Of a stretch of 64,000 bases of DNA, positions 44,962 through 63,085 are shown piece after piece. The stretch's first letter is position 1. Each line of letters starts with the position of its first letter. Source of the stretch: a bacterium (GTDB lineage: Bacteria > Zhuqueibacterota > Zhuqueibacteria > Residuimicrobiales > Krinioviventaceae); NCBI GenBank assembly GCA_963674595.2, contig CAXXFV010000029.1, positions 167,312 through 231,311 on the forward strand, given 5' to 3'. Made by a program: the position numbers and the translations under genes. The notes beneath the pieces were generated by a model that had not been told where the DNA came from, ran no database searches, and saw nothing but the letters and a program-made list of their open reading frames with translations.

Positions 44962-44997
44962 CATTATAAACCGGGGAAACATTTTTATACCACTTGA

Positions 44998-45028
44998 GGG
45001 ATTTAAAATTTTAAATCCCTTTTTTTTA
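44998..45028 (+). terminator. Rho-independent terminator
   Basis: Perfect 22-nt palindrome gggatttaaaattttaaatccc followed by T8. Confidence 0.85.
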
Positions 45029-45284
45029 ACATTTTTCAAAAACCGCTTGCCTTGATTTTATTTAATTTGTATTATTCTTCTATCAGCACAAAGGACTGTT
45101 TTTCAGGACGATTTGGTCGCGCATGGGTGTCCCGATGACTTTTGCTGATTATCCATTTTAATATTTATATTCGGGAAGTTACAACACACACGAGGAGAGA
45201 TTGCGGCGGTCACAAGATCATATTCCGGTTGGTTCGTTGCTCAAATGTTTTGGGTTGGGTGGGGTGTGCGTGGTTATTGATTAA
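45028..45284 (+). ncRNA. Candidate structured leader/sRNA element, copy 1 of 3 (unnamed family)
   Basis: Shares with 54201-54437 and 62799-63027 an A/T-rich upstream block, a -35/-10 promoter with exact 17-bp spacing, the block ggaY.gttWttca...gggtgtYcc, and the block ttaacaRYacacacRaggaRRaRatt..gccggtYa.caaRat.a.attcc.g. Confidence 0.4.
45047..45075 (+). promoter_or_regulatory. Sigma70-like promoter of element copy 1
   Basis: TTGCCT-17 nt-TATTAT. The same geometry is conserved in the other two copies. Confidence 0.55.
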
Positions 45285-45447
45285 CATTATTTAAATCATT
45301 TTTTTGCAAATGATTATATTGGCATATGTGTTATATAAATTTGTTACCAGCAATATAATTATAACAATTGGAAATATTATTATTATGATATAAGAAACTA
45401 AATATTATTTGATAAAGGTAGCTAGACTATGTGTTACAGGGAAAAAT

Positions 45448-45868
45448 ATGAATATTGAAAACGTATCAACAGTATTAGGATTACTTGGATTGGGCGGATT
45501 GCTTTGAACATATTTCCGAATATTATGGGAACGAAAAAACACAACATTATTACAAAAACAAGAAGTTAAAGAAAAAAGATATAAATGTATTATTATTCTT
45601 TTTTATCTCTTTTAGATTTAAAAAAAACAAATATTTATTACACCAAAATAATCGAGAATATATTAAAACACCTGAAGATTTAATTGATAAACTTAAAATT
45701 GAATGAAATAACATGATTCTGTTCGTATCAGACGAAGTTATTTACTCAATGAATAAATTTATCAAAAATCCTTCACCAGAGGATTATCGTAAAATGGCTA
45801 TCGCTATGAGAAAAGATCTTTGGGGAGGGAAAATATCATCCAAAAATATTGAAAATTTAAACCTATGA
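45448..45868 (+). pseudogene. Degenerate small-ORF fragments (one frameshift plus one in-frame TGA)
   Basis: A 19-aa ORF from 45448 (MNIENVSTVLGLLGLGGLL), a 73-aa ORF at 45485..45706, and a 51-aa ORF at 45713..45868. The last two share one frame and are separated only by TGA-AAT-AAC. Confidence 0.3.
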
Positions 45869-45884
45869 CGATCCTCAAGACGCG

Positions 45885-46016
45885 ATTAGACGGGGGTATT
45901 TACCCCGATAACAAATAGTTTAAAAATGTAAATATCAATTTGAGCCCTTTATTTGAAAACAGATCAGGGCACATGCCCTGGTTTATATACCACCCTGGGG
46001 AAAATTTCCAGGGGCA
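45885..46016. mobile_element. MITE-like internally deleted derivative of the RAYT element
   Basis: gggggtatttaccccgataacaaa joins directly to aatgtaaatatcaatttgag...gatcagggcacatgccctg...ccctggggaaaatttccagggg. That is the RAYT 5' flank fused to the last ~50 nt of the RAYT ORF plus its 3' hairpins. Confidence 0.7.
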
Positions 46017-46153
46017 AAAATTTACTGCTTATGTTTTGTAAATCATTCTTTTAAATACATATTTATTAATTACAAATGCCTAAAGGAGAAAAGTATCTTA
46101 CTGAAAAATCAAGGAAACATAGAAACCACAATCCTTAAAAGAAGGAAGATCCT

Positions 46154-48355
46154 ATGAAAAATGTTTTACGATTATTTGTATTCCTGTTTATAATGCAATT
46201 TGGTTTCACTACCATTGCACACGCACAAAGAACAATAACGAAAGGCAGCCACCAGGATTTCAGAGAGGGAGTAGCTCATACACTAAGGACTGCTCGCTTG
46301 AGCGATAATAAAATCCTTGTAACATATAAAGAGTCTTCGTCCAGTACCTCAGATTTATATGCCATTGCCGGTACTGTAAATTCGAGTACAAGAGAAATCG
46401 CATGGGGTACAAGAACTTTTTTAGGATCAGGATACGGAACCGCTCAAGATATTGTTGCTCTATCCTCAACAAAAGCAGCTATATTTTTTGAATATTGGCC
46501 CAGTACTCCCGACACAATGCAATATTGTGTGTTGGATATTGACGGTACTGATATTACAAAAGGAGCGATAACAAAGTTTACTGATCATCAGGTTTCGTAT
46601 AATGCTTCTTTTAGAGCTGCAGCACTATCAAATGATCAGGTTGTTGTTTGTTATGAAACAACGACAGATTCGAGATTATTAGCAATGACCGGAACAGTTA
46701 GCGGAACAACAATTACATGGGGCGGAGCTGCAACATTTAATGCTACAGATGCTGCTTTTACAGCCATTTGCAGGCTTAGTGACACAAAATTTGCCATTGC
46801 TTACGAAGATGACGATAATAGTGATCGAGGCCAAATTCGTATTGGTACAGTAAGCGGCACAACAATTACTCCCGGGGCCAGTGCATATACGTTTAATACA
46901 GGCAGCGCGGTTGGCGCTTTAGCGATAACAGCTTTAGGTGAAGATAGATTGGCACTTGCATGGGAAGACGATGGAGATGCCAACGATGTTGCACAGGTAT
47001 CACTTGCAACAGTAAGTGGTACTGCGGTTTCATTCCCTGGTAATGCACCGAGTTTTTTACAAAATGTAAATAGTGATTTAACAATTTCCGCTTTGTCAGA
47101 GTCTGAAGTTATCGTTGCCATGAGCGCAGGAGCAGGATCACCAGATTCCTATGCTTATTGCGTTTTGTCTGGTAATGATTTCAGTGTAAGCACAGATGTC
47201 CTTCTAAATGATAGAGCAGAGGATGCCAGTGTAAACTGCCTGACTTCAGACCTTTTTGTGATTAGTTTTATCGACTATTACGACGCGGAAGGCGCTGGTG
47301 CCCAATATGGGATGTCCAAAGTTTTTACAGTTGCAAGCGGTTCCTATCCGGAAATAAATGTACAGGGAAACAGTATAGATATTGTTTCAGGTGATAACAC
47401 ACCAACAACAGCCGACCATACGGATTTCGGCACAGGAGCTACGCTATCTCGAACGTTTACAATACAAAACCAGGGTGCAGGCACGCTCACACTGGGCTCA
47501 AACGCTGTTACAATTACAGGTACAGATGCTGCAAACTTTAGTGTTGACACACAACCAGCAACTACCGTTTCCGGCAGTTCCAGCACAACATTTGTGATTG
47601 ATTTTGCATCTGCCAGCGCTACTTCTCATTCTGCAGAAATTCATATCAACAGTGATGACATTCACGAACGGGACTATTTCTTTTCAATTACAGCAGAAGG
47701 CGCAGCATCTTCAAACGTCCGCGCCCAAATCAAAGTCTTTCTCGAAGGGCCGTACAATTCGACCAACAATGAAATGAATATTGACTTAAAGACAGCAGCG
47801 GTCATCCCTACAACATCACCCTATTCTGAAGACGCCCGCACCATTGGTTCCATTCCCGCAGAAATTGTAGATTGGGTGTTGGTGCAGCTTCGCTCCACGT
47901 CGGATGGAGCAGCCGTGGTTTCCAAAAGCGCATTGCTGCACAAAAGCGGTTCCATTGTTGCCGATGACGGTATAACAGATTACATAGAGCTGGAAACGGA
48001 TGCGGATGATTATTTTATTGTTATTAAACACAGAAATCATATAGCCGTTATGAGCGCTGTTGTTCACAGCCTCACTGCCGGCAGTTCGACTCTTTATGAT
48101 TTTACAATAAACAAAAATAAATATTGGGAAAACGATGCCATAGAAGTGGATACCGATCCTCAAACAATTTACGGCATGTACGCCGGAGACACCGATGCCC
48201 TCGGCACAGTAGACGCCGATGATAGGGCAGCCACATGGAACGACAGAAATAAATCCGGCTACGAAAACAGTGACTGTAAACTCACCGGTTCAGTCGATGC
48301 AGACGACAGGGCAGTCACCTGGAACAACAGAAATAAATCAACCAAATTGCCGTAA
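46154..48355 (+). CDS. Large secreted repeat protein with C-terminal dockerin-like Ca-binding repeats
   Basis: 733 aa with a signal peptide. About 55-aa repeats (GTVSGTTIT...). C-terminal duplicated segment TVDADDRAATWNDRNKS / SVDADDRAVTWNNRNKS. No T9SS tail. Confidence 0.6.
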   Translation: MKNVLRLFVFLFIMQFGFTTIAHAQRTITKGSHQDFREGVAHTLRTARLSDNKILVTYKESSSSTSDLYAIAGTVNSSTREIAWGTRTFLGSGYGTAQDIVALSSTKAAIFFEYWPSTPDTMQYCVLDIDGTDITKGAITKFTDHQVSYNASFRAAALSNDQVVVCYETTTDSRLLAMTGTVSGTTITWGGAATFNATDAAFTAICRLSDTKFAIAYEDDDNSDRGQIRIGTVSGTTITPGASAYTFNTGSAVGALAITALGEDRLALAWEDDGDANDVAQVSLATVSGTAVSFPGNAPSFLQNVNSDLTISALSESEVIVAMSAGAGSPDSYAYCVLSGNDFSVSTDVLLNDRAEDASVNCLTSDLFVISFIDYYDAEGAGAQYGMSKVFTVASGSYPEINVQGNSIDIVSGDNTPTTADHTDFGTGATLSRTFTIQNQGAGTLTLGSNAVTITGTDAANFSVDTQPATTVSGSSSTTFVIDFASASATSHSAEIHINSDDIHERDYFFSITAEGAASSNVRAQIKVFLEGPYNSTNNEMNIDLKTAAVIPTTSPYSEDARTIGSIPAEIVDWVLVQLRSTSDGAAVVSKSALLHKSGSIVADDGITDYIELETDADDYFIVIKHRNHIAVMSAVVHSLTAGSSTLYDFTINKNKYWENDAIEVDTDPQTIYGMYAGDTDALGTVDADDRAATWNDRNKSGYENSDCKLTGSVDADDRAVTWNNRNKSTKLP

Positions 48356-48393
48356 TAAATTGAATTTGAATTGAAAGACAAGAGGAACCTCTC

Positions 48394-49536
48394 ATGAAAA
48401 TAAAGATGATACTCATAGCAATGCTGGTAAACATAACCGCACTTTTTGCGCAATATGAATTCACTGCATCGGTACAAAACCAAACAGTCAACGGCACAGA
48501 TTTCACCTTTGACATTTATATGCAGCAAACCGGCGCTGAAGCAATCTATCTCGGACAGAGTGATTTTGCCTTTACATTTAACAACGAAAACTTTACAAGC
48601 GCTGCGGCTACTGTCGAGGCAGACCTTTCTCTCTTTTATGGAAGCAGCGCCACAGTTATTTCACCTAACATCATTGTTGTTAATATCAATGCACCTGCCC
48701 CCGGCAATCAAAGTGAATTCGATGCAATGGTTGCCCAAATGTCAGCGTCCGGAAATGGAAGTTTTATTGCGACAGTTAAAATCAGCACAATCTCCAATCC
48801 ATCCGGCTTTATGGGGCTGGCATGGAGAACTTCCGGCCTTAACAGCACCAAAATAAATCGATTTGACAACAGTGCTCCCTGGGCACAATCCAGCATCACC
48901 TCAAGCGGCACATACTCTGGTATTTCCGACACCTCCCTGCCAGTGGACATCTCATCCTTCTCTGCAAGATGCGAAGGGCAATCTGTCATTATCAACTGGA
49001 CAACCGAATCTGAAACAGATAATCTGGGATTCATCCTCGAACGGTCTTTGGATAAAACTGTCTGGACAACCATTGCCAGCTACCAAACAGACGATGCTTT
49101 GAAAGGCCAGGGAAATACCTCCTCTGCCACAGAATATACATTCACCGATTCGAAAATTAAACATGATGCAACCTACGCTTACCGACTTTCAGATGTGAAC
49201 ACAAACGGCAAGGTCAGCGTGTACTCTTCTCTTAACATCACGGTGGATACGCTTCCGAAAATGACAGACATGGAAAAGGCCTATCCCAATCCTTTCAATC
49301 CCCAAACGCACATTGCCTATCATCTCGCAAAAGAGGCAGATGTAGAAATCACAGTTTTCAACATACTGGGCCGGCAAATTAAAACATTACATTCAGGCAG
49401 ACAGGTTGCAGGAAGCTATCATGTCTACTGGAACGCCACAAACAATTCAGGAGACAACGTACCCACAGGGACTTTTCTTATCTGTATGCAAGCTGGTGAT
49501 ATTTATAAAATTCAAAAAGTCCTGTTAATTAAATAA
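48394..49536 (+). CDS. Secreted protein with cohesin-like N-terminal domain (guess) and T9SS C-terminal sorting domain
   Basis: 380 aa with a signal peptide. C-terminus: AYPNPFNPQTHIAYHL...GTFLICMQAGDIYKIQKVLLIK. Confidence 0.65.
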   Translation: MKIKMILIAMLVNITALFAQYEFTASVQNQTVNGTDFTFDIYMQQTGAEAIYLGQSDFAFTFNNENFTSAAATVEADLSLFYGSSATVISPNIIVVNINAPAPGNQSEFDAMVAQMSASGNGSFIATVKISTISNPSGFMGLAWRTSGLNSTKINRFDNSAPWAQSSITSSGTYSGISDTSLPVDISSFSARCEGQSVIINWTTESETDNLGFILERSLDKTVWTTIASYQTDDALKGQGNTSSATEYTFTDSKIKHDATYAYRLSDVNTNGKVSVYSSLNITVDTLPKMTDMEKAYPNPFNPQTHIAYHLAKEADVEITVFNILGRQIKTLHSGRQVAGSYHVYWNATNNSGDNVPTGTFLICMQAGDIYKIQKVLLIK

Positions 49537-49598
49537 GGAAAATTTTACAATAGGTTTTGTCAAAAAGGTGGTAATTTACAAGTCGTAGACCTTAATTA

Positions 49599-49660
49599 CG
49601 CCTTGAGAATTTTTCTCAAGCGCACAATAAGTCAGGATATTTACCCCGGTAAATATCAAT
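49599..49660. repeat. Truncated member of the RAYT-flank repeat family
   Basis: cgccttgaga-atttt-tctcaagcg hairpin, then caggatatttaccccggtaaatatcaatt. Confidence 0.5.
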
Positions 49661-49849
49661 TATATAAAATACGCATAATTTTCCCGGTGTGAAAAATATT
49701 CATAGCAAATCCGTAAAATCAACCAATAACGGGATTTTTCAAACTTGTTCTCCCGGTTCTTTTGTGGAACGGTTGTTGTAATATTCTATTCGATTTGAAT
49801 GTTTCTCAGGACCATCAAAAAACGATACTAAACCTTAACAGGACTTTTT

Positions 49850-51433
49850 ATGTTAACGAGAAGAGATTTTTTAAAAATTGCGGGAGCAGCCACCGGTGCA
49901 GTTGCCGCCAATCCGTTAAGCGCTTTTAGCTATCCTTTTAAAAGAACGGCAAATTACTTCACAGTTCATCCCTTTATTGAACAAAATCCCGATGCTGTTT
50001 TTATCATGAAGACGAATGTTGATGTAAAGACAAATTCCGAGGCGGTAAAACAGGCTGGTCTTGCGTTCGGACAATCTGTATTTCAGTTAACAGATGACGA
50101 CCAAACCGGCGTTCCATTGGACTATATGTTCCCCATTAAACCAAACCTAACATCATGGGCGTGGGATACGCCGCAGGATGCTGATTTTAAACAGGTGATG
50201 GGGGCTGTAACGGATGTAAATTTTGTGGAAGGTGTCATCGAAAGTATGAAAGCGCTTGGCATCAATGCCGAACAATTTTATATTCGCGATGCGAATGGCT
50301 CTGAAAATTATGACAGGGCCGGTTACAGCGCTATGGGAGAACGTACCGGTGTGGATATCCAGTTAAACGCTCAAAATCCGCAACTGCAATGGGTGGATGT
50401 CCCCAAAGGCGTGTGGTTTAAACGTATCCCCTATTTATGGCCGATCAACACCCCCAATAGCTGGTTGTTAAACATTGCGAAATTTAAAGCACATGGAATG
50501 GGATTGACATTGAGCGCCAAAAATCTTCAGGGAAGCATTCCGGCCCCTTATGTTTGTCATTGTGCGGCCTGGGGCGCATCAATGGGCATGGATCCCGCAG
50601 ATATACAGCCCAATGCTTTTGACGTGATTGCTGAAAATTATAATCGTCACAGAGATGCGGGAATTCCACGATGGGACGTAGAAGGATTGGACGTTAACGG
50701 CGGTCAGGGAATGGAGACATGGGCCGCGCGCTGCATCGATAATAATTCTGTTTTAAAACCGGGACTAAATGTTATTGAAGGTATCTATGGCCGGGATGGA
50801 AACGGTTTTTATCAGGGTCCGCATAATGGCGCTGCCCAGGATTTTTTAACCAATATTATTATCTTTGGTAAAAATACTTTTTACGTAGATATTATCGGAA
50901 AATGGCTTGGCGGACATGAACCGGGAAATTTTGGTCTTTTTCACATCGCCAAAGAACGTAACATGATTGATACCTTTAATCCAAAAGAAATTTCTTTATA
51001 CGAATGGAATGCAAACGGACAAGCAACACTTGCTGATCTAGCAAATTTTGAACGCACTGCCCTGCAAACATATTATTTAACAAAGCCGGGTGAAGATAAA
51101 TATCATCTTTGCAACGAGCCTTATGATTACAAACCCTCCATTATTGTGGATAATACAACGAGCAAACCGTCAAGTTTTATTCTCCAACAAAACTATCCGA
51201 ATCCGTTTAACGGTTCAACGTCCATTACGTTTACCCTTCCCAGGAGCGGCAGGACACGGTTGGAAATTTTTAACAGCCGGGGTGAAATTGTTGATGTCAT
51301 TGCAGAGGGATATTATCAGCAAGGAACACATTTAGCCCTTTGGAGAAACGATAATTTACCATCAGGTACCTATTTCTATCGATTACGATTCGATTCCTTT
51401 AATGAAATGAAAAAAATGGTATTGGTAAAATAG
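49850..51433 (+). CDS. DUF362-like protein with Tat signal and T9SS C-terminal sorting domain
   Basis: The N-terminus MLTRRDFLKIAGAATGAVAA is a twin-arginine motif. The mid-protein segment FKAHGMGLTLSAKNLQGS is DUF362-like. C-terminus: QNYPNPFNGSTSITFTL...GTYFYRL...KMVLVK. Confidence 0.65.
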   Translation: MLTRRDFLKIAGAATGAVAANPLSAFSYPFKRTANYFTVHPFIEQNPDAVFIMKTNVDVKTNSEAVKQAGLAFGQSVFQLTDDDQTGVPLDYMFPIKPNLTSWAWDTPQDADFKQVMGAVTDVNFVEGVIESMKALGINAEQFYIRDANGSENYDRAGYSAMGERTGVDIQLNAQNPQLQWVDVPKGVWFKRIPYLWPINTPNSWLLNIAKFKAHGMGLTLSAKNLQGSIPAPYVCHCAAWGASMGMDPADIQPNAFDVIAENYNRHRDAGIPRWDVEGLDVNGGQGMETWAARCIDNNSVLKPGLNVIEGIYGRDGNGFYQGPHNGAAQDFLTNIIIFGKNTFYVDIIGKWLGGHEPGNFGLFHIAKERNMIDTFNPKEISLYEWNANGQATLADLANFERTALQTYYLTKPGEDKYHLCNEPYDYKPSIIVDNTTSKPSSFILQQNYPNPFNGSTSITFTLPRSGRTRLEIFNSRGEIVDVIAEGYYQQGTHLALWRNDNLPSGTYFYRLRFDSFNEMKKMVLVK

Positions 51434-51617
51434 TATCTTTTGCCCGAGTTGGAAAAAATTCTCCGAACCGGCAAAACATACTGTAGAATTTTCAGAATTT
51501 ATATTGATGAATAATGTTGAAAACGTTAAATTGGCAGAATAAGAACAATAGTGTTTGCCCACATAGACTTGCTGAATCAACACCAGCCATCCAAAATTTA
51601 ATGAACAAAGGGAAAAA

Positions 51618-51870
51618 ATGACGGAAAAAGAATTAGCAGAATTAACGGACGAAGAATTGTTGCAAAAAGCAAAAAAAAATGAAATCAACTTCCATAACAA
51701 ATGCCGTACTGGTTGGATTTCTGATAGGAATAATATTTTACAGCATTTTAAAAAACAGTTTAGGATTTTTTACACTAATCCCTTTATTTATAGCATACAA
51801 ATTGATTAATAATTCAAAAGATGATAATAAAGAATTAGAAAATCTTTTAAAAGAACGAAATTTAAAATAA
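51618..51870 (+). CDS. Small 2-TM membrane protein, either split by a frameshift in an A-run or starting at 51679
   Basis: ORF 51618..51809 (MTEKELAELTDEELLQKAKK...) and ORF 51679..51870 (MKSTSITNAVLVGFLIGIIFYSIL...) overlap at the A-run 51671-51679. One fewer A would fuse them in frame. Confidence 0.5.
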
Positions 51871-51937
51871 GAAACAGCAAAAAATTGTCAAAACCGTAAT
51901 GAAATCATTATAAAGATTGAATGATTCTGATCGCTTT

Positions 51938-52088
51938 GGTAAAAATTTCCCAGGCGAAATGAATCAGGTTTTTACCCCGATAACAAAAGCTTTAATCATG
52001 TAAATATTAATACAGACCCGTTATCTGAGAACGAATCAAAGAACATGCCCTGCTTTATTTAACGCCCTGGGATAAATTTTCAGGGGCC
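51938..52088. mobile_element. MITE-like internally deleted derivative of the RAYT element (second copy)
   Basis: ggtaaaaatttcccaggcgaaatgaatcaggtttttaccccgataacaaaagctttaatcatgtaaatattaat...gaacatgccctg...cgccctgggataaattttcagggg is colinear with the 45885-46016 copy and with the RAYT flanks. Confidence 0.7.
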
Positions 52089-52156
52089 GGTAAAGTATTA
52101 ATTAAACAATGGGGCAAAAGCCCGGTTTATAACAGGCATACATTAGAGGTGTTGAA

Positions 52157-53242
52157 ATGAAAACTATTATTTCTATTATAGCATGTTTCATTTTATTTAG
52201 TTTTTGTTATTGTGAGCGGGAATCAGTAACGGCTATTAATTCTGATAATGCAGGCACTGGAAGTATAACATTTTCATTTAAAAAAAATAATAGTGCCGAT
52301 GGTGTTTGTAAAATTATTTTGGCCCTGTCAAGGACCGGTTTTGCGACAATTAATGATACTGTTGCCGTTACCAATGAAAACACAAGCATGGTGTTTATTT
52401 CAAGCATTCCATTGGGTACATGGCAATTAAACGTTGATGGTGTGGATAATAACAACGCCGTATTATATAGCGGGCAAACAGAAGTCGAAATACAAGCGAA
52501 TCAAACGACACAAGTAGATTTAACCCTTCGACCGGCCACAGGCTCTATTAATATTAACATTCAGTGGGGTAATAATGCGGGTAAAGCCGTTTATTTTACG
52601 AATGGTGAAAATTATATCAAGGTTAATAACTCACCTTTGCTTAATAATATGACAGATCAACTCACATTGGAAGCCTGGGTAAAACCGATTAATCAATATT
52701 ATAACTATATAATAAATAAAACAGGTCACCAATATACAATGGAACTGATAAACGGCTTAAGGCCGGCATTTAGATTTGATGGTCTAACAGTTGATTATAA
52801 TGACATGAATGATTATTGGGGACGGATCGTATTAAACACAACAATACCCGAAAATGAATGGACTCACATTGCGTATTCATATAACAGTATGGAATCAAAC
52901 GTTGATATATTTATTAACGGGGAACTTTATCAAACTCTTTATTCAACAGGTTTATTACAAACAAACACAGGAGATTTGTTAATAGGTGCCTATCTAAGTG
53001 ATAATTATCGTTTATTCTACAAAGGTTATATTGATGAAGTTCGGATTTGGAACGTATCACGTTCTCAAAGTGAAATACAAGAAAACATGGCTTGTCCGCT
53101 TGAAGGAAATGAAGACGGACTCGTTGCTTATTGGCGTTTTGATGAAATAGTTGATAATAATATAGTTGTAGACAAATCAGGAAATCATAACAATGGTTAT
53201 ATTGTCGGAGAATTAAACCTGGCAGATTCTTTTGCATTTTGA
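52157..53242 (+). CDS. Lipoprotein with LamG/concanavalin-A-like lectin domain
   Basis: 361 aa with a lipobox (FILFSFCYC). LTLEAWVKP...GYIDEVRIWNVSRSQSEIQ is the typical LamG signature. Confidence 0.65.
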   Translation: MKTIISIIACFILFSFCYCERESVTAINSDNAGTGSITFSFKKNNSADGVCKIILALSRTGFATINDTVAVTNENTSMVFISSIPLGTWQLNVDGVDNNNAVLYSGQTEVEIQANQTTQVDLTLRPATGSININIQWGNNAGKAVYFTNGENYIKVNNSPLLNNMTDQLTLEAWVKPINQYYNYIINKTGHQYTMELINGLRPAFRFDGLTVDYNDMNDYWGRIVLNTTIPENEWTHIAYSYNSMESNVDIFINGELYQTLYSTGLLQTNTGDLLIGAYLSDNYRLFYKGYIDEVRIWNVSRSQSEIQENMACPLEGNEDGLVAYWRFDEIVDNNIVVDKSGNHNNGYIVGELNLADSFAF

Positions 53243-53387
53243 AATAAACTTGTTCCGCACACAGAGACTCCTTGCCAAGTGCGTAATTAGTAGTATGCAG
53301 TGTTCCCCTGCGGCGCCCGATAAAAAACATGAGAAAATATTCACACAAAAAGAAAAAAAAGCATCAATAGATAAAAGGTTTTACAAT

Positions 53388-54017
53388 ATGTCTTTCAAGT
53401 TCATACTGCTGTTTTCAACAACTGTTTTTGTTGCCTCAATAATACCGGGGCCAAGTATGTTATTAGCCTTAACCCATGGTATGCATTACGGAGCGAGACG
53501 AACCATCGCCTCTGCTATGGGGAATATTACAGTAACCCTCATTCAAGCGTCTGTTTCCATTGCAGGGTTAGGCGCCATTTTAATTGCTTCTGAAACAATA
53601 TTTCAATTAATTAAATTGGCAGGAGCGGCATATCTTATCTATATGGGAATCGTCATATTACGATCACCAAAAATGTCGTTATCGCCGATTAAAGCCGGAG
53701 ATTCCACAAAAGGTAACTCTTTAAAAAGGATGTATCTGCAGGCTGCATTTGTTACGGCGGGGAACCCCAAAGCAATTGTATTTTTTACAGCCGTTTTTCC
53801 TCAATTTATTGATCCTGATGCCGGCTTTTTAACTCAATCCTGCACGCTTTTGAGCATTGGCGCTTTTATAGCGTTTAGCTGTTTTATGATTTATGCAATG
53901 GCCGGCCAAAAGATAGTTTCGCTGTTTTCCCAGGCCACTGTTGGAAAATATATAAAAAGAGTTATTGGCGGCACTTTTATTGGAGCAGGTATTGGCCTTG
54001 CTGTAAGCAGCAAATAA
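53388..54017 (+). CDS. LysE/RhtB family amino-acid exporter
   Basis: The start was trimmed to MSFKFILLFSTTVFVASIIPGPSMLLALTHG, the LysE N-terminal motif. NPKAIVFF is present. Confidence 0.8.
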   Translation: MSFKFILLFSTTVFVASIIPGPSMLLALTHGMHYGARRTIASAMGNITVTLIQASVSIAGLGAILIASETIFQLIKLAGAAYLIYMGIVILRSPKMSLSPIKAGDSTKGNSLKRMYLQAAFVTAGNPKAIVFFTAVFPQFIDPDAGFLTQSCTLLSIGAFIAFSCFMIYAMAGQKIVSLFSQATVGKYIKRVIGGTFIGAGIGLAVSSK

Positions 54018-54200
54018 AAAACAAAACACAATATAAAGCAATTTTGCTCATCCGGGGATTCCGTTCTCCGGTTATAAATGACAAGGAGTACCTGCTCCAT
54101 ATTGCTCACCTTGAGAGTGTTTTCCAAGACGTGGTCGAGCAGGATATTTACGCTCTATAAAATTTACGAAAAAATAATTTCTCCCCTTTGCCCTTTTTTC

Positions 54201-54437
54201 AACATTTTTCAAAAACAGCTTGCCTGGATTTTTTATAATTTGTATAATTCATTTGTCAGCAAAAGGGACCGTTATTCAGGATGATATGGGTGTTCCTGGA
54301 TTGCCTCTTACTGATTTATAATTTCATCTTAAAAAACGGGTTTTAACAACACACACGAGGAAGAGATTTCGCCGGTTATCAAATTATATTCCTGTGGTCT
54401 CACTTGTAAATGATTAGGCTGGATGCGTTAAGTATCC
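54201..54437 (+). ncRNA. Candidate structured leader/sRNA element, copy 2 of 3
   Basis: See 45028-45284. Lies about 170 nt upstream of the outer-membrane-protein-like gene starting at 54605. Confidence 0.4.
54220..54248 (+). promoter_or_regulatory. Sigma70-like promoter of element copy 2
   Basis: TTGCCT-17 nt-TATAAT. Confidence 0.6.
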
Positions 54438-54604
54438 CGGTTACCAGTTCTGTTTTGCAGCAGGATAATTTTATTCCTTGTAAAAAACAGATATGTTCCC
54501 ATATGGAAATATAGAATTTGCCGGTAAAAATTAACAATATTGGTTTTATAATAATTGAGTGCTATGCTAAACAAATAATTGAATTCACAGGGAGATTTAA
54601 GACG

Positions 54605-55621
54605 ATGAAACAGACATGGAAATCCGGCAGCATCACATTATTAATTTTTATTCTATTTTTACTTTCCGGTCCGGCAAATGCTCAACAGGATATCGACACA
54701 AATAACGATATTGAAAAATGGAAAGGGAAAAAACCGGCTTTAATATTAAAAGAAAATAAAACCAAAGTAATAACCGGAAAAATTATTAAAGTTGATGAAA
54801 ACGGAGTGATATTCGATCCAAAAAAGGAAAGTCTGTTTTATAATCCTCCGCAAAAGTTTTACTCATTTGATGAAATTGAAACACTGGTTGGTAACAATGG
54901 TAAATATATTATCAATCAGGGTAAACGAATTGGTGAAAATTACGAGTCGGCGCAACAGGCCAGGAGACCGACCCAAAGAAGTAAAAGTAGTAAAAGTAGA
55001 AGTAAAAAATCTTTTTCTCATAAATTCAGGTTTAATGCAGAATATGGATATAGCTCGCTCAGAATAAAACCGGAAGACAATATTGATCCCATTTTCAAGG
55101 ATTATGTAAATGAATTAAAATCAGGCAGCAATTTTAGTATGGATGTCTGTTGTTTTGTTTCTTACTATTATGGAGTTGGACTTGTATACTCAAATTTTTC
55201 AACATCCGGTTTTATTGACGGAATTTATGCGGTGGATATTACCACAGGCAGAGAGTTAGGTCCCGGTAGGATTGAAGACAACATAACAGTATCTTTTATT
55301 GGTCCAGCTTTTTTTGAAAGAAAAGCGTTAATTCCGCAAAAATTACTGCTTATTTCCAATATAGCTATTGGCCGTATATCCTATGTTAATGACGGCACGA
55401 TTATAACGGAACCGGTTACAATAAAGGGAAATACTATCGGTTTTAGTGGGGCAATCGGATTAGATTTTTTTATAGCTAAAGATTTTGCAATTGGTATAGA
55501 TTTTTCATACCTGATTGGAAAAATCGGCAAATACAAAATTAACAATCAAACCGTCGATCTTGAAGAAGATGAAAGTATGAATCGCTGGGATTTTAATATA
55601 GGTTTAAAATATTATCTTTAA
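54605..55621 (+). CDS. Putative outer-membrane beta-barrel protein
   Basis: The start was trimmed to MKQTWKSGSITLLIFILFLLSGPANAQQ. The C-terminal half has alternating-hydrophobic strands and ends ...WDFNIGLKYYL. Confidence 0.55.
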   Translation: MKQTWKSGSITLLIFILFLLSGPANAQQDIDTNNDIEKWKGKKPALILKENKTKVITGKIIKVDENGVIFDPKKESLFYNPPQKFYSFDEIETLVGNNGKYIINQGKRIGENYESAQQARRPTQRSKSSKSRSKKSFSHKFRFNAEYGYSSLRIKPEDNIDPIFKDYVNELKSGSNFSMDVCCFVSYYYGVGLVYSNFSTSGFIDGIYAVDITTGRELGPGRIEDNITVSFIGPAFFERKALIPQKLLLISNIAIGRISYVNDGTIITEPVTIKGNTIGFSGAIGLDFFIAKDFAIGIDFSYLIGKIGKYKINNQTVDLEEDESMNRWDFNIGLKYYL

Positions 55622-55730
55622 AATTTCACGAGTATCTTGTAAATTATTATTTTCTACCCGCTCAAGGATTGCTTTCCCTGAGCGGAAAACAGGAGTAACT
55701 ATCCCCTCTTTAATCAGCTTCCAACATTAA

Positions 55731-56057
55731 TATGACCTTTACCCGGATAAAGAGTGCCGAGTGAAAACGGCCGTATTCTGCTTTACCATTAAAGGTATGG
55801 AACCTTCGGATATCGGGTATATCCTTTAAAATAATTTCGGTATCGTGGTACGCTCCGGACTGCATGGCGCACCGCTTATCCACAAACATATCGGCACATT
55901 TCCGATCGGCTCCGTTCGTGTCAATCCGTCACATCTCACCAGTGATGATGAAATAGAGGCATTTACCGATGCCGTACATTTAAAAAATCCCGGGGAATAC
56001 CCGGCTGATATGTTTATTAAAAATATAGAAAAAATCAGGGAGCACAACCAGTCGTAA
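55731..56057 (+). pseudogene. Remnant of a class-V aminotransferase / cysteine desulfurase gene (C-terminal ~105 codons, with an in-frame stop)
   Basis: The frame reads ...FCFTIKGMEPSDIGYIL*NNFGIVVRSGLHGAPLIHKHIGTFPIGSVRVNPSHLTSDDEIEAFTDAV. This follows the SufS/CsdA-type C-terminus (GIavRaGhHCa.P...vRaS...yNt.eEid). There is a TAA at 55827, Gly replaces the conserved Cys, and no N-terminal part is present. Confidence 0.65.
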
Positions 56058-56342
56058 CAGCAGGCGTTACTTGCCGGATTAAATTGTGGGACCCGGCAAA
56101 TATACGATTTGATCCAGTAAGTTCACCCGCCAAAACAGGTTACACTAAAAATCATTATGGTTTGCCCCTGTTCAGTAAATATCTCTGGAAAAATATAATT
56201 ATTTTCCCTTGTAAAATATACAAAAATGTATAAATTGTGGAATAAAAACAATTTAATACTAATTTAGAATAGAAACCGACAATTTATCCGAACCTGGTGC
56301 GTACAAACCAGAGAGTATAACCTGGGTTACAGGAGACGGCGC

Positions 56343-56717
56343 ATGCCTTTTAAAATCGTATTTTTAGAAAATGATGGTATAGTCCACGTTACCTATTCCG
56401 GGACAGTGACTAAAGACAATCACTATTCGGCGTTAAAAGAAGCACTCGAATTATGCGCAGAAAAAAAATCCACAAAATTGCTTGTTGATTTTTCGAAACT
56501 GAACGAAGCAAAACTTTCCACTTTGGACGCATTTTCATTAGCTGAACACATCTCAACAATAAAACCAGTCATGCATATCGCCCATGTATACACCAAACAA
56601 CGCAAATACCACGAAAATATAAAATTTGCATCCAGCGTTGAAACCAATAGAGGCAAGATAACAGGAGAATTTAAAAGCGTTAAAGATGCATTGACCTGGC
56701 TGCGCAGCATTGGATAA
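56343..56717 (+). CDS. STAS-like (SpoIIAA-fold) hypothetical protein
   Basis: 124 aa. The pattern FKIVFLENDGIVHVTYSGTVTKDN...LLVDFSKL resembles STAS/DUF domains. Confidence 0.4.
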   Translation: MPFKIVFLENDGIVHVTYSGTVTKDNHYSALKEALELCAEKKSTKLLVDFSKLNEAKLSTLDAFSLAEHISTIKPVMHIAHVYTKQRKYHENIKFASSVETNRGKITGEFKSVKDALTWLRSIG

Positions 56718-56886
56718 AGCCGGCCCCATTAAAACAGAAAATTGTTTAAAAACAATTTCATTATGATTATCCAGGGGATTATTTTAAACTTTTTAAAAAA
56801 AGTCGTAAGCATTTTACTTGTTTTGGCGCTATAAAAATATGTGAAAATCGGGAATCCGGATAATAACTAAGAAAAGGGAGCGTAGA

Positions 56887-58683
56887 ATGATTTCGAAAAA
56901 AACTGGTCTCGTATGGAACCTCATCTCGTTTTGTATCATCATTTTAACCATTTCTGCATCAGCACAAGATCCCGGAACAAACACATTTACAGGAGCGGTA
57001 AACGCTAACTGGTATGAACCCGGCAACTGGAGCGAAGGACATTGTCCGACTTACAGCGATTATGTGCTTATTCCGGAAGGTAAAACCGTTGCTATCAATA
57101 CAGAGGGAGATAGAATTGATGCAAAGAATATTACAAATAATGGAACCATAAAAATTGAAAAAACCTCGTTTCAATCAATAGCTAGTATCAATGCCGGTAA
57201 CTATTTTACAAATAACGGGACCATTGAAGGTGACGATATTTATCTCACGATAACCGGATATAAGAACTTTGATAACAGAGGAACGATTAAAAGCAATGAC
57301 ACTGTTAAAATATTCTCGTCCGGAAAAGCAACCAATTTGGAAGCCGGAAAGATAACCGGAGGATCTCTTGAAATTTTTGGACTTAAAGGTATTGATAATA
57401 AAGGAGAGATGGTATCCGGCAATGCTACAGACACCAAAGAAGCCGGACACATTAACCTGTACGCAGGCGGCGAAGAGTATGAATCCGGTGATATAAATAA
57501 TTGGGGAATGATCCGCCTGGGTAACGGTGGATCAAATAGCAGAGGCGGTAAAGCACATATTACAGCAAAAAATGTCAACTGTTTTCCGGGCAGTTATCTT
57601 TTCGGAGGGATGGGAGCGGTATTCGGCGGTATTATTCGTATCAACGTTCGAGGTAAACTTGTTATCGCCGGAGAGTCTGCCACCGGAACAGGAATTCCGG
57701 CTGTTAAAAATCCAGCCAATCAAACCGAATTTGTAAATCTGGACGACTATACTTATTATAAAATGACGGGTGACACCATTATTTTTGCCGGGGCTATCAC
57801 AAACACCTATGGCGACTATATTTTGGCCCGGGCCAATGTAATTAAATTCGAAGCTGCCACCGGCAGCAATGTGTTAATGGCGGAAAACGGCATAACACTG
57901 GAAACCCCGCCGGGAGGAACCATTGATTTTTCCGGACTCACCACTGAAAATTCCATCTCCACAACCAGTGATTCCATATTTCTGTACAGCGACTACATCG
58001 TCCCCCCTGCCGCCGGCATCGGCAGCATTTCCGAACAGCCTGTAGTGCCGCAAGCCGCTAATGATGAACAGGTCGATGCAGAGCTGTTGTGCTTGGGACA
58101 AAAACATGCTACATTAACAGCAGACACAGTGATATATAACCTTCAAAATACCGGAACGAAAGAACAGAGTTTTAGCTATTCTGTTTCTTCAGAACTGGGT
58201 TCCTGCACAGCAGAAGGCAGCACCCCGGTATTAGGTCCCTTTGAATCAACCATTCTGGAAGTACTTCTCTACAGACCGGAAAACGTAACAACAGACACCC
58301 TTGATACCCTGACCCTGACAGTTTCAGGCGATAACGATTTTTCCACATCACTAACGACAACTGTTTCTATCTCAAAGGACATAATCATCAGTGATGTTCC
58401 TGAAAAAGCAGCCATGCCGGAAAACTATTTTATGGTCCGCACGTTTCCAAATCCGTTTAATCCGGCAACAAACGTCGTGTTTAATCTGGATAAATTACAA
58501 AACGTATCCTTTAAAGTTGTAAATGTTATGGGCAAGGTGGTATATCAACAAAAACTGGGACGATTAAATGCCGGTGAACACACTATATCCTGGGACGGGT
58601 CTCAATATGCTTCCGGTACCTATTATATGGTCATTGAAACCGAATCCGCAAAATGTGTAACAAAAGCGTTAATGCTGAAATAA
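56887..58683 (+). CDS. Secreted beta-helix-like repeat protein with T9SS C-terminal sorting domain
   Basis: 598 aa with a signal peptide. Repeats of the type N.G.I.. (NNGTIKIE, NNGTIEGD, NRGTIKSN). C-terminus: FPNPFNPATNVVFNL...GTYYMVIE...KALMLK. Confidence 0.65.
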   Translation: MISKKTGLVWNLISFCIIILTISASAQDPGTNTFTGAVNANWYEPGNWSEGHCPTYSDYVLIPEGKTVAINTEGDRIDAKNITNNGTIKIEKTSFQSIASINAGNYFTNNGTIEGDDIYLTITGYKNFDNRGTIKSNDTVKIFSSGKATNLEAGKITGGSLEIFGLKGIDNKGEMVSGNATDTKEAGHINLYAGGEEYESGDINNWGMIRLGNGGSNSRGGKAHITAKNVNCFPGSYLFGGMGAVFGGIIRINVRGKLVIAGESATGTGIPAVKNPANQTEFVNLDDYTYYKMTGDTIIFAGAITNTYGDYILARANVIKFEAATGSNVLMAENGITLETPPGGTIDFSGLTTENSISTTSDSIFLYSDYIVPPAAGIGSISEQPVVPQAANDEQVDAELLCLGQKHATLTADTVIYNLQNTGTKEQSFSYSVSSELGSCTAEGSTPVLGPFESTILEVLLYRPENVTTDTLDTLTLTVSGDNDFSTSLTTTVSISKDIIISDVPEKAAMPENYFMVRTFPNPFNPATNVVFNLDKLQNVSFKVVNVMGKVVYQQKLGRLNAGEHTISWDGSQYASGTYYMVIETESAKCVTKALMLK

Positions 58684-58954
58684 ATAGTTTGAATACCGGG
58701 CCCCTGGTCAGGGTCCGGTAAACCTGTTAAAAATACAAAAAAACAAAATAGAGAAGTAAATAATATAGTTATTATTATATTATGGACAGGTAACGAATAT
58801 TCTATTCTATTCTATTCAACCCCGGCTCGGTAAAGAAATTAATTTTCAGAGCTATACTCCAGTCTATTCCACAATTCTATGATCCGCAACCTTGCAACAG
58901 CTTTGAATGTTATACCTAATTTTTAAGGGACTAACAAAGTAAGGAAACAGGACC

Positions 58955-59704
58955 ATGGCAAACGCAAATTTCTCAACGTTATACAAAAATGCTCATTTCA
59001 AGGCAACTCATAATTCCTATTCCGGAGACAAAGGTGGATTAAGGGGACCTATAAGAAAACAGTTGGATTCCGGTATACGATTTTTAGAGCTTGATGTTCA
59101 TGCAAAAGGAGAACAGTTTGAAATAGGACACAGCAAAATTGGAGATCAAGTTGATAATAATGGTGAAAATCCACGAACGACAGAATTTAGCGCATGGCTT
59201 GAAATTATTGCTCAATGGTCGAATGAACATACAAATCACGTTCCGATAACAATTGGACTTGATGTCAAAAGTAATCTGTTAATACAAAATGGGGTAATTA
59301 TCAAATTTGAAAATTTGATTAAAGAAATATTCAAAAACAAACTTTACCCGGCCCACAAATTTAAAAAAAATGAGACAACAATCGAACATCTTTTAGACCG
59401 GGTGCTTGTCGTTCTTTCAGGCAATGCGGAAACGCGTTCAATCTATCAAAACTCTTCCGTAAACAAATCACTCTTTGTAGAACTTAAAAAGGGAGAAAGT
59501 AACAAATTAGATAATAATATTTTTTATGCTGCAAGGTCCAGATTTGCATCATGGGGCCAGGAACAAAAAGAAAGAGGAAAGATTGTACGAATCTGGGAAT
59601 TTGATGAAAAGAGCACAAATGTCGATATAAATTTTCCGGCGACAGATGATCCCTATTCGGATTGGTATCAGGACTATTGTAAAAGAATCAATACAATTTC
59701 TTAG
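58955..59704 (+). CDS. PI-PLC X-domain-like phosphodiesterase
   Basis: 249 aa. ATHNSYSG...GIRFLELDVH is the PLC-like phosphodiesterase catalytic pattern. No signal peptide seen. Confidence 0.55.
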   Translation: MANANFSTLYKNAHFKATHNSYSGDKGGLRGPIRKQLDSGIRFLELDVHAKGEQFEIGHSKIGDQVDNNGENPRTTEFSAWLEIIAQWSNEHTNHVPITIGLDVKSNLLIQNGVIIKFENLIKEIFKNKLYPAHKFKKNETTIEHLLDRVLVVLSGNAETRSIYQNSSVNKSLFVELKKGESNKLDNNIFYAARSRFASWGQEQKERGKIVRIWEFDEKSTNVDINFPATDDPYSDWYQDYCKRINTIS

Positions 59705-59760
59705 TTTTTATTGATATAATCATTAATTCGGCTGAACCGGCTGAAAGAAAGTGAGGAATT

Positions 59761-61203: not shown

Positions 61204-61291
61204 AACAACAACAATTAACAGCGACACCGGATTGAGCAGATTTAATACATGCTGTTCAATCCGGGCTTGCACATTGAAAGGGGTAAACCTG

Positions 61292-61876: not shown

Positions 61877-62014
61877 ACAGGACGGTCATAAAATTCCTTA
61901 TTATAAAAATAAAGGGAGAAACCAGAACACTCTTGCCGCAAGGATGGTATATTATTTAAAAAGCCCTTGCACCAGGGACACGAAATTTGTATCATTTATT
62001 TGTCAGAATGAGAG

Positions 62015-62800: not shown

Positions 62801-63027
62801 CATATTATTTTAAAAATACCTTGCGCTAATATTTCAGAATTCGTATTATTGATTTATTATTTTAAGGATTGTTTTTCATCATGATTTGACCGGGCAGGGG
62901 TGTTCCTGATTTTTCACATATAAAATGTGATTTAACAGTACACACAAGGAAGAAATTGAGCCGGTCACAAAATCACAATCCGGTTATTTCACGTCAAAAT
63001 TTTTGGGTGGGTAAAGAGCATGGATAA
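62799..63027 (+). ncRNA. Candidate structured leader/sRNA element, copy 3 of 3
   Basis: See 45028-45284. It starts at the stop codon of the preceding gene and ends about 100 nt before the secreted-protein gene at 63129. It contains a perfect tgtgattt/aaatcaca helix around the acacacaaggaag block. Confidence 0.4.
62821..62849 (+). promoter_or_regulatory. Sigma70-like promoter of element copy 3
   Basis: TTGCGC-17 nt-TATTAT. Confidence 0.5.
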
Positions 63028-63037
63028 TTGATATTAG

Positions 63038-63085
63038 CAAGGTGCCGCTCCTGCCGCACCATCTATAACCGATATAAAAAATACC
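63038..63085 (+). repeat. Upstream hairpin motif, copy 4
   Basis: caaggtgccgctcctgccgcaccatctataaccgatataaaaaatacc, located 44 nt upstream of the ATG at 63129. Confidence 0.5.

Follow-up and report, generated by a model that had tools for sequence, protein, structure and literature searches.

A lineage-specific, duplicated intergenic element with a predicted promoter and leader RNA lies upstream of unrelated genes in a strain-variable island of Zhuqueibacterota

JUMPStart/ops is a short leader element recognised by RfaH-type NusG paralogues; several copies occur in the long 5′ untranslated regions (UTRs) of unrelated surface-structure operons, and the element is conserved as sequence, not as RNA structure. 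In the Escherichia coli ompA and Bacillus subtilis aprE leaders, a 5′-terminal stem-loop shields the mRNA from 5′-end-dependent decay. Putative mobile promoters (PMPs) are homologous, promoter-containing stretches of non-coding DNA found upstream of non-homologous genes within one genome (Matus-Garcia, Nijveen and van Passel 2012; PMC3575422). They are defined by an identity of at least 80% over at least 50 nt in the −150 to −50 region, lack an associated insertion sequence (IS) element and in most cases an Rfam match, and have no established route of spread (PMC3575422). Correia elements, ERIC and REPIN are promoter-carrying repeats (PMC3575422).

The element described here occurs three times in a 64,000-nucleotide stretch of DNA (the window) from a KSB1/Zhuqueibacterota bacterium. 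The original prediction placed three homologous intergenic copies at 45028–45284, 54201–54437 and 62799–63027; these positions are correct, and the resemblance between the copies is far above chance. A profile HMM built from the three copies matches the window at 54191–54444 (nhmmer E 2.4e-75), 45018–45279 (E 7e-75) and 62797–63033 (E 4.8e-60), a result that is partly circular; non-circular support comes from a repeat search of the window, in which 45018–45116 and 54191–54289 are 84% identical over 99 nt. An 18-mer from the element core has a chance expectation of 0.01 occurrences in the window. Two further paralogues (c4 and c5) were found in close relatives, giving five in total. Most pairs of paralogues are only 45–65% identical, and each has the same blocks in the same order: an A-tract, a −35 CTTGC, 17 bp, a −10 TATWAT, a 5′ stem-loop domain, a U-rich run, a variable AU-rich linker, a 3′ block AACAnnACACACGAGGAAGAGAUUG..CGGU and a G-rich tail. 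The sequence blocks listed from the first inspection of this DNA were all recovered in the alignments. The features of the window are as follows.

45018–45285, + strand: copy 1 (c1), full element (nhmmer E 7e-75), directly 3′ of the M48 peptidase gene terminator
45028–45075, + strand: predicted c1 promoter (consensus scan), with an A/T-rich UP-like tract at 45028–45046, −35 TTGCCT at 45047–45052 and −10 TATTAT at 45070–45075
A45082, + strand: c1 predicted +1
45082–45149, + strand: c1 5′ domain (folding), with P1 pairing 45082–45088 with 45143–45149 and P2 pairing GGAC 45093–45096 with GTCC 45129–45132
45150–45171, + strand: c1 U/A-rich run, directly after the 5′ domain
45172–45231, + strand: c1 3′ conserved block (alignments), GGGAAGTTACAACACACACGAGGAGAGATTGCGGCGGTCA...TTCCGGTT, with a CA-rich tract, a Shine–Dalgarno (SD)-like purine run, TTG and a CGGT repeat
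45241–45272, + strand: c1 G-rich tail, CAAATGTTTTGGGTTGGGTGGGGTGTGCG, common to c3 and c5 and weak in c2
54191–54443, + strand: copy 2 (c2), with −35 at 54220–54225, −10 at 54243–54248 and predicted +1 at G54255
54255–54259 with 54311–54315, + strand: c2 P1
54338–54397, + strand: c2 3′ block; the downstream gene has its ATG at 54605
61949–62011, + strand: promoter-only relative, TTGCAC-17-TATCAT followed by TTTGTCAG, upstream of the Fer4 gene
62796–63022, + strand: copy 3 (c3), with −35 TTGCGC at 62821–62826, −10 TATTAT at 62844–62849 and predicted +1 at A62856
62927–62985 and 62995–63013, + strand: c3 3′ block and tail
63035–63065, + strand: family C leader motif, GGTGCCGCTCCTGCCGCACC..., directly 3′ of c3; it also follows c5 in L168

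Orthologues of c1 are present in the related loci L165, L166 and L167, and those of c2 in L168 and L169 are 98–100% identical to it; 15 nt of the 5′ domain are deleted in c3 relative to its L168 orthologue. The copies cluster in one island of ~31 kb, and nhmmer and the covariance model find none in the remaining ~45 kb of the window. Searches of 185,579 species genomes and of viral and metagenome contigs gave no homologue: DNA-pattern scans with the core block gave no match in genome contigs and none in viral contigs, and the four loci returned from metagenome contigs (L081–L084) were all chance matches on reading. Nhmmer and the covariance model R1, run on all fetched loci, which took in the M48-gene flanks of the nearest other KSB1 genomes (L085–L092, L118 and L171–L174; 61–72% protein identity), detected no copy beyond one species-level cluster. 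The element is lineage-specific and is so far known from this single cluster.

Like PMPs, the element is homologous promoter DNA standing before unrelated genes with neither an IS element nor an Rfam match. The c1–c2 match reaches the PMP identity threshold and the remaining pairs are, overall, less than 80% identical; no homology links the adjacent coding sequences. Unlike PMPs, the matches lie outside the −150 to −50 region: the c2 match covers about −414 to −316, counted from the ATG at 54605, and the c1 match is over 1 kb away from the first real gene behind it. The shared segment, moreover, is ~230–260 nt long and further upstream (about −410 to −160 in c2), most of it would be leader that is transcribed, including a stem-loop with partial covariation, and the copies sit in one strain-variable island. 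With the ompA and aprE leaders the element has in common a hairpin that would start no more than about two nucleotides from the +1, a long 5′ UTR and exported or outer-membrane gene products; it differs in having no sequence similarity to them, a larger two-helix domain with a U-run, and several unrelated genes behind its copies. As with Correia elements, ERIC and REPIN, repeated intergenic DNA could supply promoters and recombination points, but terminal inverted repeats, target duplication and a cognate transposase are all absent here. JUMPStart/ops is likewise a short, multi-copy leader element conserved at the sequence level before unrelated genes, and c1 contains GGCGGT; however, the units downstream of our element are of 1–3 genes and not long operons, and no NusG paralogue was seen. 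Set beside the ops core (GGCGGTAG), c1 has GGCGGTCA (6/8), and the counterparts GCCGGTTA (c2), GCCGGTCA (c3), GTCGGTTA (c5) and ATCGGTTT (c4) match more poorly (~4/8), so we rejected this assignment.

The first inspection had recognised no named RNA family, and Rfam 15 bears this out: the window has no match at the gathering threshold, and each copy taken singly (E≤10) gives only chance-level matches far below it. It had also allowed for the similarity marking the terminus of some known mobile element. This is not so, as the copies have no inverted repeats in common and no transposase adjoins any of them, the relatives' loci included; the absence of shared inverted repeats, target duplication and an adjoining transposase likewise disposes of a MITE or insertion-sequence end. 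An invertible promoter was rejected because no consistent inverted repeats flank the copies (c3 has none, c5 only a private AT-rich pair), and Pfam scans of the window ORFs and fetched flanks detected no recombinase. An integron, taken as IntI plus attC sites with R″/R′ (RYYYAAC...GTTRRRY), was rejected in turn: there is no tyrosine recombinase domain in the scanned window ORFs or the neighbours' gene tables, and the inter-cassette repeat, family B, is not attC-like.

The best-conserved part of the element is its promoter. The exact 17-bp spacing reported earlier holds in all three window copies (c1 TTGCCT-17-TATTAT, c2 TTGCCT-17-TATAAT and c3 TTGCGC-17-TATTAT). Over 65 nt the promoter shows no differences in four of five orthologue comparisons, next to intergenic DNA that is 5–14% divergent; for c1, two of its three comparisons are without differences and the third has two. 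The same region holds the most invariant columns across the paralogue alignment. A promoter-only relative (nhmmer E 2e-5) matches HMM positions 11–74 and nothing else. A Bacteroidetes-type TAnnTTTG promoter was rejected, as it fits c4 only. The predicted promoter is of the sigma-70 type and appears strong; that it fires, starts at the proposed +1 and is read through into the next gene are expectations from its sequence.

Downstream of the predicted start lies the 5′ domain, formed by P1 (AUCAGCA/UGCUGAU) and P2 (GGAC/GUCC). The GGAC:GUCC helix was part of the original prediction and is retained; with more paralogues added, compensatory changes are visible, giving it modest covariation support. 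The 'outer helix' noted in copy 1 proved to be P1, which is conserved in four of the five paralogues, again with modest covariation support; in all five its first nucleotide coincides with the predicted +1. Across P1 and P2, 92.6% of cells are paired (20–51% in slid controls), and three pairs are changed on both sides. The covariation score is 0.202 compared with 0.145 for shuffles (2/500), a thin margin of support because there are only ~5 independent sequences, and kin sequences may exceed shuffles without any structure. The 5′ domain of c1 scores 92 bits with covariance model R1. Folding z-scores are unimpressive (−3.0 to +1.7), P1 barely forms in the folding of c3, and across orthologues the RNA part is 94–100% identical, no better kept than coding DNA. 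The loop GUUUUUCAGGAYGAUUUGG is conserved in the alignment. A third helix proposed earlier, tgtgattt/aaatcaca, is present in copy 3 and is private to it. In every paralogue P1 is followed by GAUUU(U/A), and this U-rich run directly after P1 could halt transcription near +75. A terminator scan found no canonical terminator after the 5′ domain in c1, c2 or c5 and no intrinsic terminator after the full element in any copy; in c3 alone it calls a terminator-like site at 62895–62908 (P1 plus the U-rich run, ~+75).

The 3′ block is conserved as sequence, and neither folding nor alignment supports a helix within it. A CCGG/CCGG hairpin was dropped because of an uncompensated C·U mismatch common to c2 and c4 and a G·G mismatch in c1. 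A G-quadruplex in the tail was rejected, as the G-runs are not conserved and c2 has none.

The genes around the copies are unrelated, as had been proposed. Copy 1 follows a terminator (44996–45021 plus T-run), the stop codon of ORF 62015–62800 marks the start of copy 3, and the upstream genes are M48, LysE and Fer4; BLASTP between the downstream proteins gives E 7.5–13, that is, no similarity. The original prediction placed a signal-peptide gene behind every copy. Copies 2 and 3 do precede genes with obvious signal peptides, but copy 1 is followed only by ORFs of 19–73 aa, and 870 nt, with another repeat element among them, separate it from the first real gene (46154, 733 aa). Nor is a specific tie to surface or secreted proteins supported, since in close relatives the element faces other functions: the c1 orthologue precedes a BglII-like restriction endonuclease in L165 and a nucleoside-deoxyribosyltransferase-like gene in L167, and the fifth paralogue (L168) precedes a 42-aa ORF with an HD-domain protein gene behind it. 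Across all copies, the downstream products are exported or outer-membrane-like, GH2-like, BglII-like endonuclease, deoxyribosyltransferase-like and HD-domain proteins. Each of the five paralogues has the same orientation as the gene that follows it, and where that gene is close it starts 57–200 nt downstream. L167 has the element promoter and 5′ domain after the M48 terminator and then, 47 nt past the breakpoint, a different gene; in L168, a 288-aa gene lies 57 nt beyond the 3′ edge of c3. Scans found no other promoter-like site in the former gap and none in the latter. In c3 and c5, the family C motif stands between element and gene, and the leaders are therefore modular.

We favour, at about even confidence, an interpretation of the element as a lineage-specific, duplicated promoter-plus-leader module (leader RNA ~180 nt) acting in cis on whichever gene lies downstream. 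A sigma-70-type promoter (A-tract, CTTGC, 17 bp, TATWAT) would start transcription at a purine 6–7 nt past the −10. The first nucleotide of the RNA would then be the first of P1, and the transcript would therefore open with a stem-loop domain of ~65–70 nt (P1 plus P2) and no single-stranded 5′ tail. This domain may protect the mRNA from 5′-end-dependent decay, as in the ompA and aprE leaders. After the U-rich run and AU-rich linker, the 3′ block (CA-rich tract, GAGGAAGAG, UUG) would be a docking site, either for ribosomes (as a standby site or short upstream ORF (uORF), possibly one whose peptide sequence does not matter) or for a common trans-acting regulator; docking is our guess at its most likely role. 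Transcription would run on into the downstream gene, so that unrelated units of one hypervariable island share expression signals, and the copies, because they are homologous, may double as recombination points for gene swaps between strains. We take it as a new case of promoter re-use and as no more than a candidate regulatory RNA.

Less probably, and in our estimate unlikely, the element is a multi-copy gene for a trans-acting sRNA, either ~75 nt long, its ends paired by P1 and finishing in the U-run after CUGAU, or ~190 nt long. The conserved single-stranded block would then be a seed or a GGA-containing protein-binding site, and a conserved block with no supported helix is how a seed region is expected to look. 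Every copy has its own conserved predicted promoter amid unrelated flanking genes, the GAUUU(U/A) after P1 occurs in all paralogues, and the terminator-like call in c3 falls at a suitable place. The window copy of c1 in particular, with no gene within 870 nt, counts against a cis-acting leader and looks more like an orphan or free-standing transcript. The scans that found no canonical terminator after the 5′ domain (c1, c2 and c5) or the whole element (any copy) argue against an sRNA, as do the clustering of the copies in one island, the genes newly inserted behind the element without promoters of their own and the L167 version, which lacks the putative seed block and is still kept before a gene. 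The purine block has no complementary target in the window other than the element itself. A CsrB/RsmY-type sponge sRNA was rejected separately: the 2–4 GGA motifs per copy are not conserved (c3 lacks the loop GGA, c4 lacks two), and there is no terminator.

A broader reading, to which we give only a small probability, would make the element a new regulatory RNA family specific to KSB1/Zhuqueibacterota-like bacteria, in which P1/P2 forms a conditional terminator or a processing-protected sRNA and a single-stranded SD-mimic block is bound by a dedicated regulator. It would co-ordinate a hypervariable island of T9SS-secreted and defence-like genes and serve as a homology scaffold that captures promoter-less cassettes; if true, the element would be a promoter-carrying, integrase-free analogue of the integron platform.

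Still more doubtful is a cis-acting attenuator or riboswitch-like leader, in which the 5′ domain and U-run form a conditional terminator, set by a ligand or protein, that gates read-through. Here an alternative pairing AAAGG/CCUUU would extend P1 (P1b). P2 (GG with CC at columns 50–51) and P1b (the same GG with CC at columns 59–60) are mutually exclusive and ~89–93% pairable, and the U-rich run after P1 and the conserved loop fit such a switch. P1b shows no covariation, though, the stems are weak and the loops oversize for the terminator scanner, and there is no Rfam match. The downstream genes have no common function, which is atypical of a riboswitch and argues against a ligand-sensing one.

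It is very unlikely that the element acts mainly at the DNA level, as a portable homology block or recombination site for cassette exchange with an incidental promoter. Strain differences do break inside or beside it: inside c1 at ~45186 in L167, where the 3′ block is missing; at 45354 in L165, 69 nt past c1; and, in L168, at 63022, precisely where c3 ends on its 3′ side. The L167 copy of c1 is a mosaic, c1-like at its 5′ end and c5-like at its 3′ end, and the inserted 288-aa gene of L168, which maps between window positions 63022 and 63049, is bounded by the short direct repeat ACCGAGTAAC. Yet the majority of island breakpoints fall at another repeat family, B, a REPIN-like inter-gene repeat unlike the element in sequence, with a RAYT (Y1 transposase) in the same window. 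Pfam scans and neighbour gene tables revealed no recombinase or integrase in the window or fetched flanks, the block-wise conservation, above all that of the −35 and −10 at 17-bp spacing, matches the expectation under selection on expression, and recombination between dispersed repeats is expected as a by-product.

Finally, we rejected the SD-like block and TTG as the start of a 16–35-aa leader peptide, small protein or regulatory uORF, an extremely improbable reading on grounds of start codon, reading frame and codon-position variation: GAGGAAGAG lies 5 nt upstream of TTG in four of five paralogues, c1 and c3 have ORFs of 27 and 23 aa, and a few differences look synonymous (CCG/CCT, GTT/GTG, TCG/TCA), but c2 has TTT for TTG and offers no start in frame, codon positions 1/2/3 vary about equally (9/8/7 of 11 codons), 1-nt indels shift the frame of the conserved tail TTTTGGGTTGGGTGG between c1, c3 and c5, and lengths and C-termini are unlike between copies.

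The finding has no bearing on any long-standing open question. Knowledge of non-coding RNA in KSB1/Zhuqueibacterota is very sparse. Should the proposal hold, the module would be a means by which an uncultured FCB-group bacterium brings newly acquired or shuffled genes under expression: one promoter-plus-leader re-used inside a strain-variable island, with the same repeats acting as recombination points. An uncharacterised leader RNA with a 5′-terminal stem-loop would then be added to what is known of this group.

The three stretches that the original prediction had judged homologous can be aligned across ~230–260 nt, and their homology is confirmed. The copies (c1–c3), a promoter-only relative and two further paralogues (c4 and c5) on contigs of very close relatives (loci labelled L) are as follows:

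45018-45285, + strand: c1; -35 TTGCCT, -10 TATTAT, 17 bp apart
54191-54443, + strand: c2; -35 TTGCCT, -10 TATAAT, 17 bp apart
62796-63022, + strand: c3; -35 TTGCGC (62821-62826), -10 TATTAT (62844-62849), 17 bp apart
61949-62011: fourth, promoter-only relative, before a Fer4 gene
L167 18923-19139: c4, truncated at the contig end
L168 17525-17761: c5, about 4.5 kb past the window end

A profile built from the three copies recovered them in the window with E-values of 2.4e-75, 7e-75 and 4.8e-60, a self-search that is partly circular; independently of the profile, a repeat search of the window matched 45018-45116 to 54191-54289 at 84% identity over 99 nt. The core 18-mer, ACACACRAGGARGARATT, has a chance expectation of 0.01 occurrences in the window. 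Overall identity between paralogues is only 45–65%, but the blocks and their order are kept. Several positional details also held: c1 lies right behind a terminator (44996-45021 plus T8), c3 begins at the stop codon of the preceding Fer4-type ORF (62015-62800), and the flanking genes are unrelated, the proteins encoded downstream sharing no similarity.

The 17-bp promoter spacing recurs in all three copies as predicted, and the consensus (block a) is an A-tract abutting CTTGC, 17 bp and (T)GTATWAT. This is the best-conserved part of the element among orthologues (four of five comparisons showed 0 differences across 65 nt); conservation of the RNA part is about equal to that of coding DNA. The best matches of the M48 peptidase (61–68% identity) are in 'candidate division KSB1' or 'Candidatus Zhuqueibacterota' MAGs; these matches and the T9SS C-terminal sorting domains on several proteins assign the window to this FCB-group lineage. 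Scans for the conserved-core pattern gave 0 matches in 185,579 species genomes, 0 in viral contigs and chance matches only in JGI metagenome contigs, collections that exclude the window's own source contig (248,599 bp). Four contigs of very close relatives, found via 90%-identity protein clusters, have flanks 96–99% identical to the window and carry orthologues of c1, c2 and c3 as well as c4 and c5. Searches with nhmmer and with a 5'-domain covariance model covered the window's initial 45 kb, the sequence beyond the co-oriented gene array and the surroundings of the M48 gene in the nearest other genera; none of these contained a copy. So far, the family is limited to one species-level cluster and one ~31-kb array.

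Helix P1 (AUCAGCA...UGCUGAU) starts with the purine that lies 6–7 nt past the -10 (block b). P2, the GGAC...GUCC helix already proposed, encloses a conserved loop, GUUUUUCAGGAYGAUUUGG (block c). Directly behind P1 come GAUUU(U/A) and an AU-rich linker whose length varies (block d), then the conserved 3' block GGGAUUUAACAnnACACACGAGGAAGAGAUUGnnnnCGGUYA...UUCCGGUU (block e) and a tail, CAAAAUUUUUGGGUUGGGUGG, present in c1, c3 and c5 (block f). Among ten distinct sequences, about five of them independent, 92.6% of P1 and P2 cells are standard-paired versus 20–51% with slid partners, and the covariation score is 0.202 versus 0.145 for shuffles (2/500). Both partners have changed in three pairs, one of them in P1 (C-G to U-A) and two in P2 (C-G to U-A; A-U to U-A). 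An alternative extension of P1 (P1b; AAAGG/CCUUU), which competes with P2 for GG, is 88.7% pairable and has no covariation in the same pair counts. Folding z-scores of the 5' domain are modest (-3.0 to +1.7), and P1 scarcely forms in c3 upon folding. Folding of the 3' block gave zero supported helices; a CCGG/CCGG hairpin considered there breaks down in c1, c2 and c4.

Downstream, c2 and c3 face genes for exported proteins, as predicted, but behind c1 the window has AT-rich sequence for 870 nt, in which all ORFs are small and another repeat lies. In relatives, c1 precedes a BglII-like endonuclease gene (L165) or a deoxyribosyltransferase-like gene (L167), and c5 precedes a 42-aa ORF, behind which an HD-domain protein is encoded. 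With such genes downstream, a cis leader specific to surface or secreted-protein genes is not supported. The ORFs after c1 (45409-45868; 32, 73 and 51 aa, in different frames) may be remnants of a frameshifted gene; the first includes a signal-peptide-like 19-aa stretch, MNIENVSTVLGLLGLGGLL, and had been read as the signal-peptide gene. Behind c3 (63129 to the window end) lies the gene for a GH2-like protein, 1019 aa long on the window's contig (cluster member P0150). L168 (14376-17439) has this gene split in two ORFs, of 731 aa and 237 aa; one of the strains probably has a frameshift or a pseudogene here.

From the M48 terminator to the new gene in L167, the element's promoter is the sole promoter-like site, and a search of the gap between c3 and the inserted gene in L168 found zero promoter-like sites. 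Because no other such site lies in between, transcription of both new genes appears, from sequence, to rely on the element. We give about an even chance to the element being a duplicated, cis-acting promoter-plus-leader module. A multi-copy sRNA, which would fit the U-run behind P1 and the orphan state of c1 in the window, is unlikely given that the copies have no terminators and are clustered in a single island, and that the downstream insertions are promoter-less. A conditional attenuator formed by P1, P2 and P1b is less probable again, the functionally incoherent downstream genes speaking against ligand sensing.

From the M48 gene onward, the array is co-oriented and strain-variable, with T9SS cargo, glycosidase-like and defence-like genes; several window proteins carry T9SS C-terminal sorting domains. 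The region ~45000-64000 is a hypervariable island in which genes for secreted proteins sit among defence-like genes (for example, a BglII-like endonuclease, DUF4062, HD/dGTPase-like and TerB_N-like proteins and several T9SS-tailed proteins). Here and in L165, L167, L168, L169 and L170, genes lie on a single strand and their content varies though the flanks are 96–99% identical; the island ends about 12 kb beyond the window, at a gene-orientation flip. Strain differences break at repeats, the majority at family B, one of two further repeat or leader families. The other repeats and mobile elements of the window are:

21460-21543, 22044-22192, 45866-46049, 49600-49653 (remnant), 51933-52109: family B repeat (~170 nt)
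21546-22097, + strand: Y1_Tnp (IS200-like transposase) ORF, 183 aa, 23.9 bits (cut-off 23)
18362-18392, 26655-26685, 63035-63065, and L168 17766-17795: family C leader motif
3164-4995: tandem array, six to seven copies of a ~280-nt unit, 62–94% identical
18536-19805, + strand: IS3-family insertion sequence; orfA-like HTH protein from 18536, 308-aa rve integrase-core ORF 18879-19805

Breakpoints at the studied element fall within c1 at about 45186 (L167), 69 nt downstream of c1 (L165) and precisely at c3's 3' boundary (63022); at this last point, L168 has an extra 288-aa gene. The L167 c1 resembles the other c1 copies at the 5' end and c5 toward the breakpoint, and thus element paralogues recombine. 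That the element is chiefly a DNA-level recombination scaffold is slightly less probable than an attenuator. Inverted repeats common to all copies were sought and are absent, and no transposase or recombinase adjoins any copy among the neighbour genes examined in the window and the relatives' loci, indicating that the element is not the end of a known mobile element. A short direct repeat, (A)ACCGAGTAAC, stands on either side of the 288-aa gene (L168 13310-13322 and 14320-14332; window 63084-63093) and may be a cassette-like insertion junction.

Family B lies between island genes, with many copies in L165, L167, L168 and L169, and has a palindromic hairpin, CGCCCTGGAAAAnATTTCCAGGGCG, at either end and inner hairpins CGGGGTATTTACCCCG and CAGGGCAnATGCCCTG. 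Inter-strain gene insertions and deletions have B copies on both sides; a B-flanked dTDP-sugar-isomerase gene is present in L168 and L169 and missing from the window at 52087. The RAYT-like Y1 ORF sits between the left and right halves of one B element, an arrangement like that of REP/REPIN and RAYT systems; the family is thus probably a REPIN-like mobile element whose transposase the window encodes. Family C consists of RCAGGGTGCCGGTTCTACCGCACCATTC and, behind it, an A-rich stretch with AAATAC at its end, and lies about 40–140 nt before start codons; it lies immediately 3' of c3 and c5, and its hairpin is cut by the L168 insertion. An additional ~280-nt unit (6270-6459) lies on the other side of ORF 5071-6138; short repeats of the CACAAAGG type occur within the tandem units, as does a conserved GTTAAAAAATCACAATGCCCTAATT, and the units lie in a stretch without an ORF of at least 150 aa. 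Rfam searches with family C and the array gave zero matches. The IS3-family element is inside a low-GC (0.30–0.35) segment at about 18–28 kb in the window, with DUF3800 and SIMPL-domain genes.

The element itself also had zero Rfam matches, placing it outside named RNA families as first suggested. Four paralogues have a TTG behind an SD-like GAGGAAGAG; as the start of a short coding ORF it was rejected, with c2 carrying TTT instead and lacking an in-frame start, variable sites evenly distributed over codon positions 1, 2 and 3 (9/8/7), and 1-nt indels putting the conserved tail in differing frames (c1, c3 and c5). The element is predicted to be non-coding, and a leader peptide is very improbable.

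As a whole, the original interpretation is partly supported, and its reading as a promoter-bearing leader is plausible. The element fits promoter re-use, a phenomenon already documented as 'putative mobile promoters' (PMC3575422), but differs from their operational definition in position and identity and exceeds it with its long conserved leader. In the promoter-bearing leader reading, the element's promoter would fire and the first part of the transcript would form the base-paired 5' domain, likely a shield against 5'-end-dependent decay on the model of the ompA and aprE leaders, whose 5' structure is protective in this way. The conserved CA/GA-rich block may then serve as a docking site for the ribosome or a regulator, and transcription would read through into the next gene, at times by way of an additional leader motif, family C.
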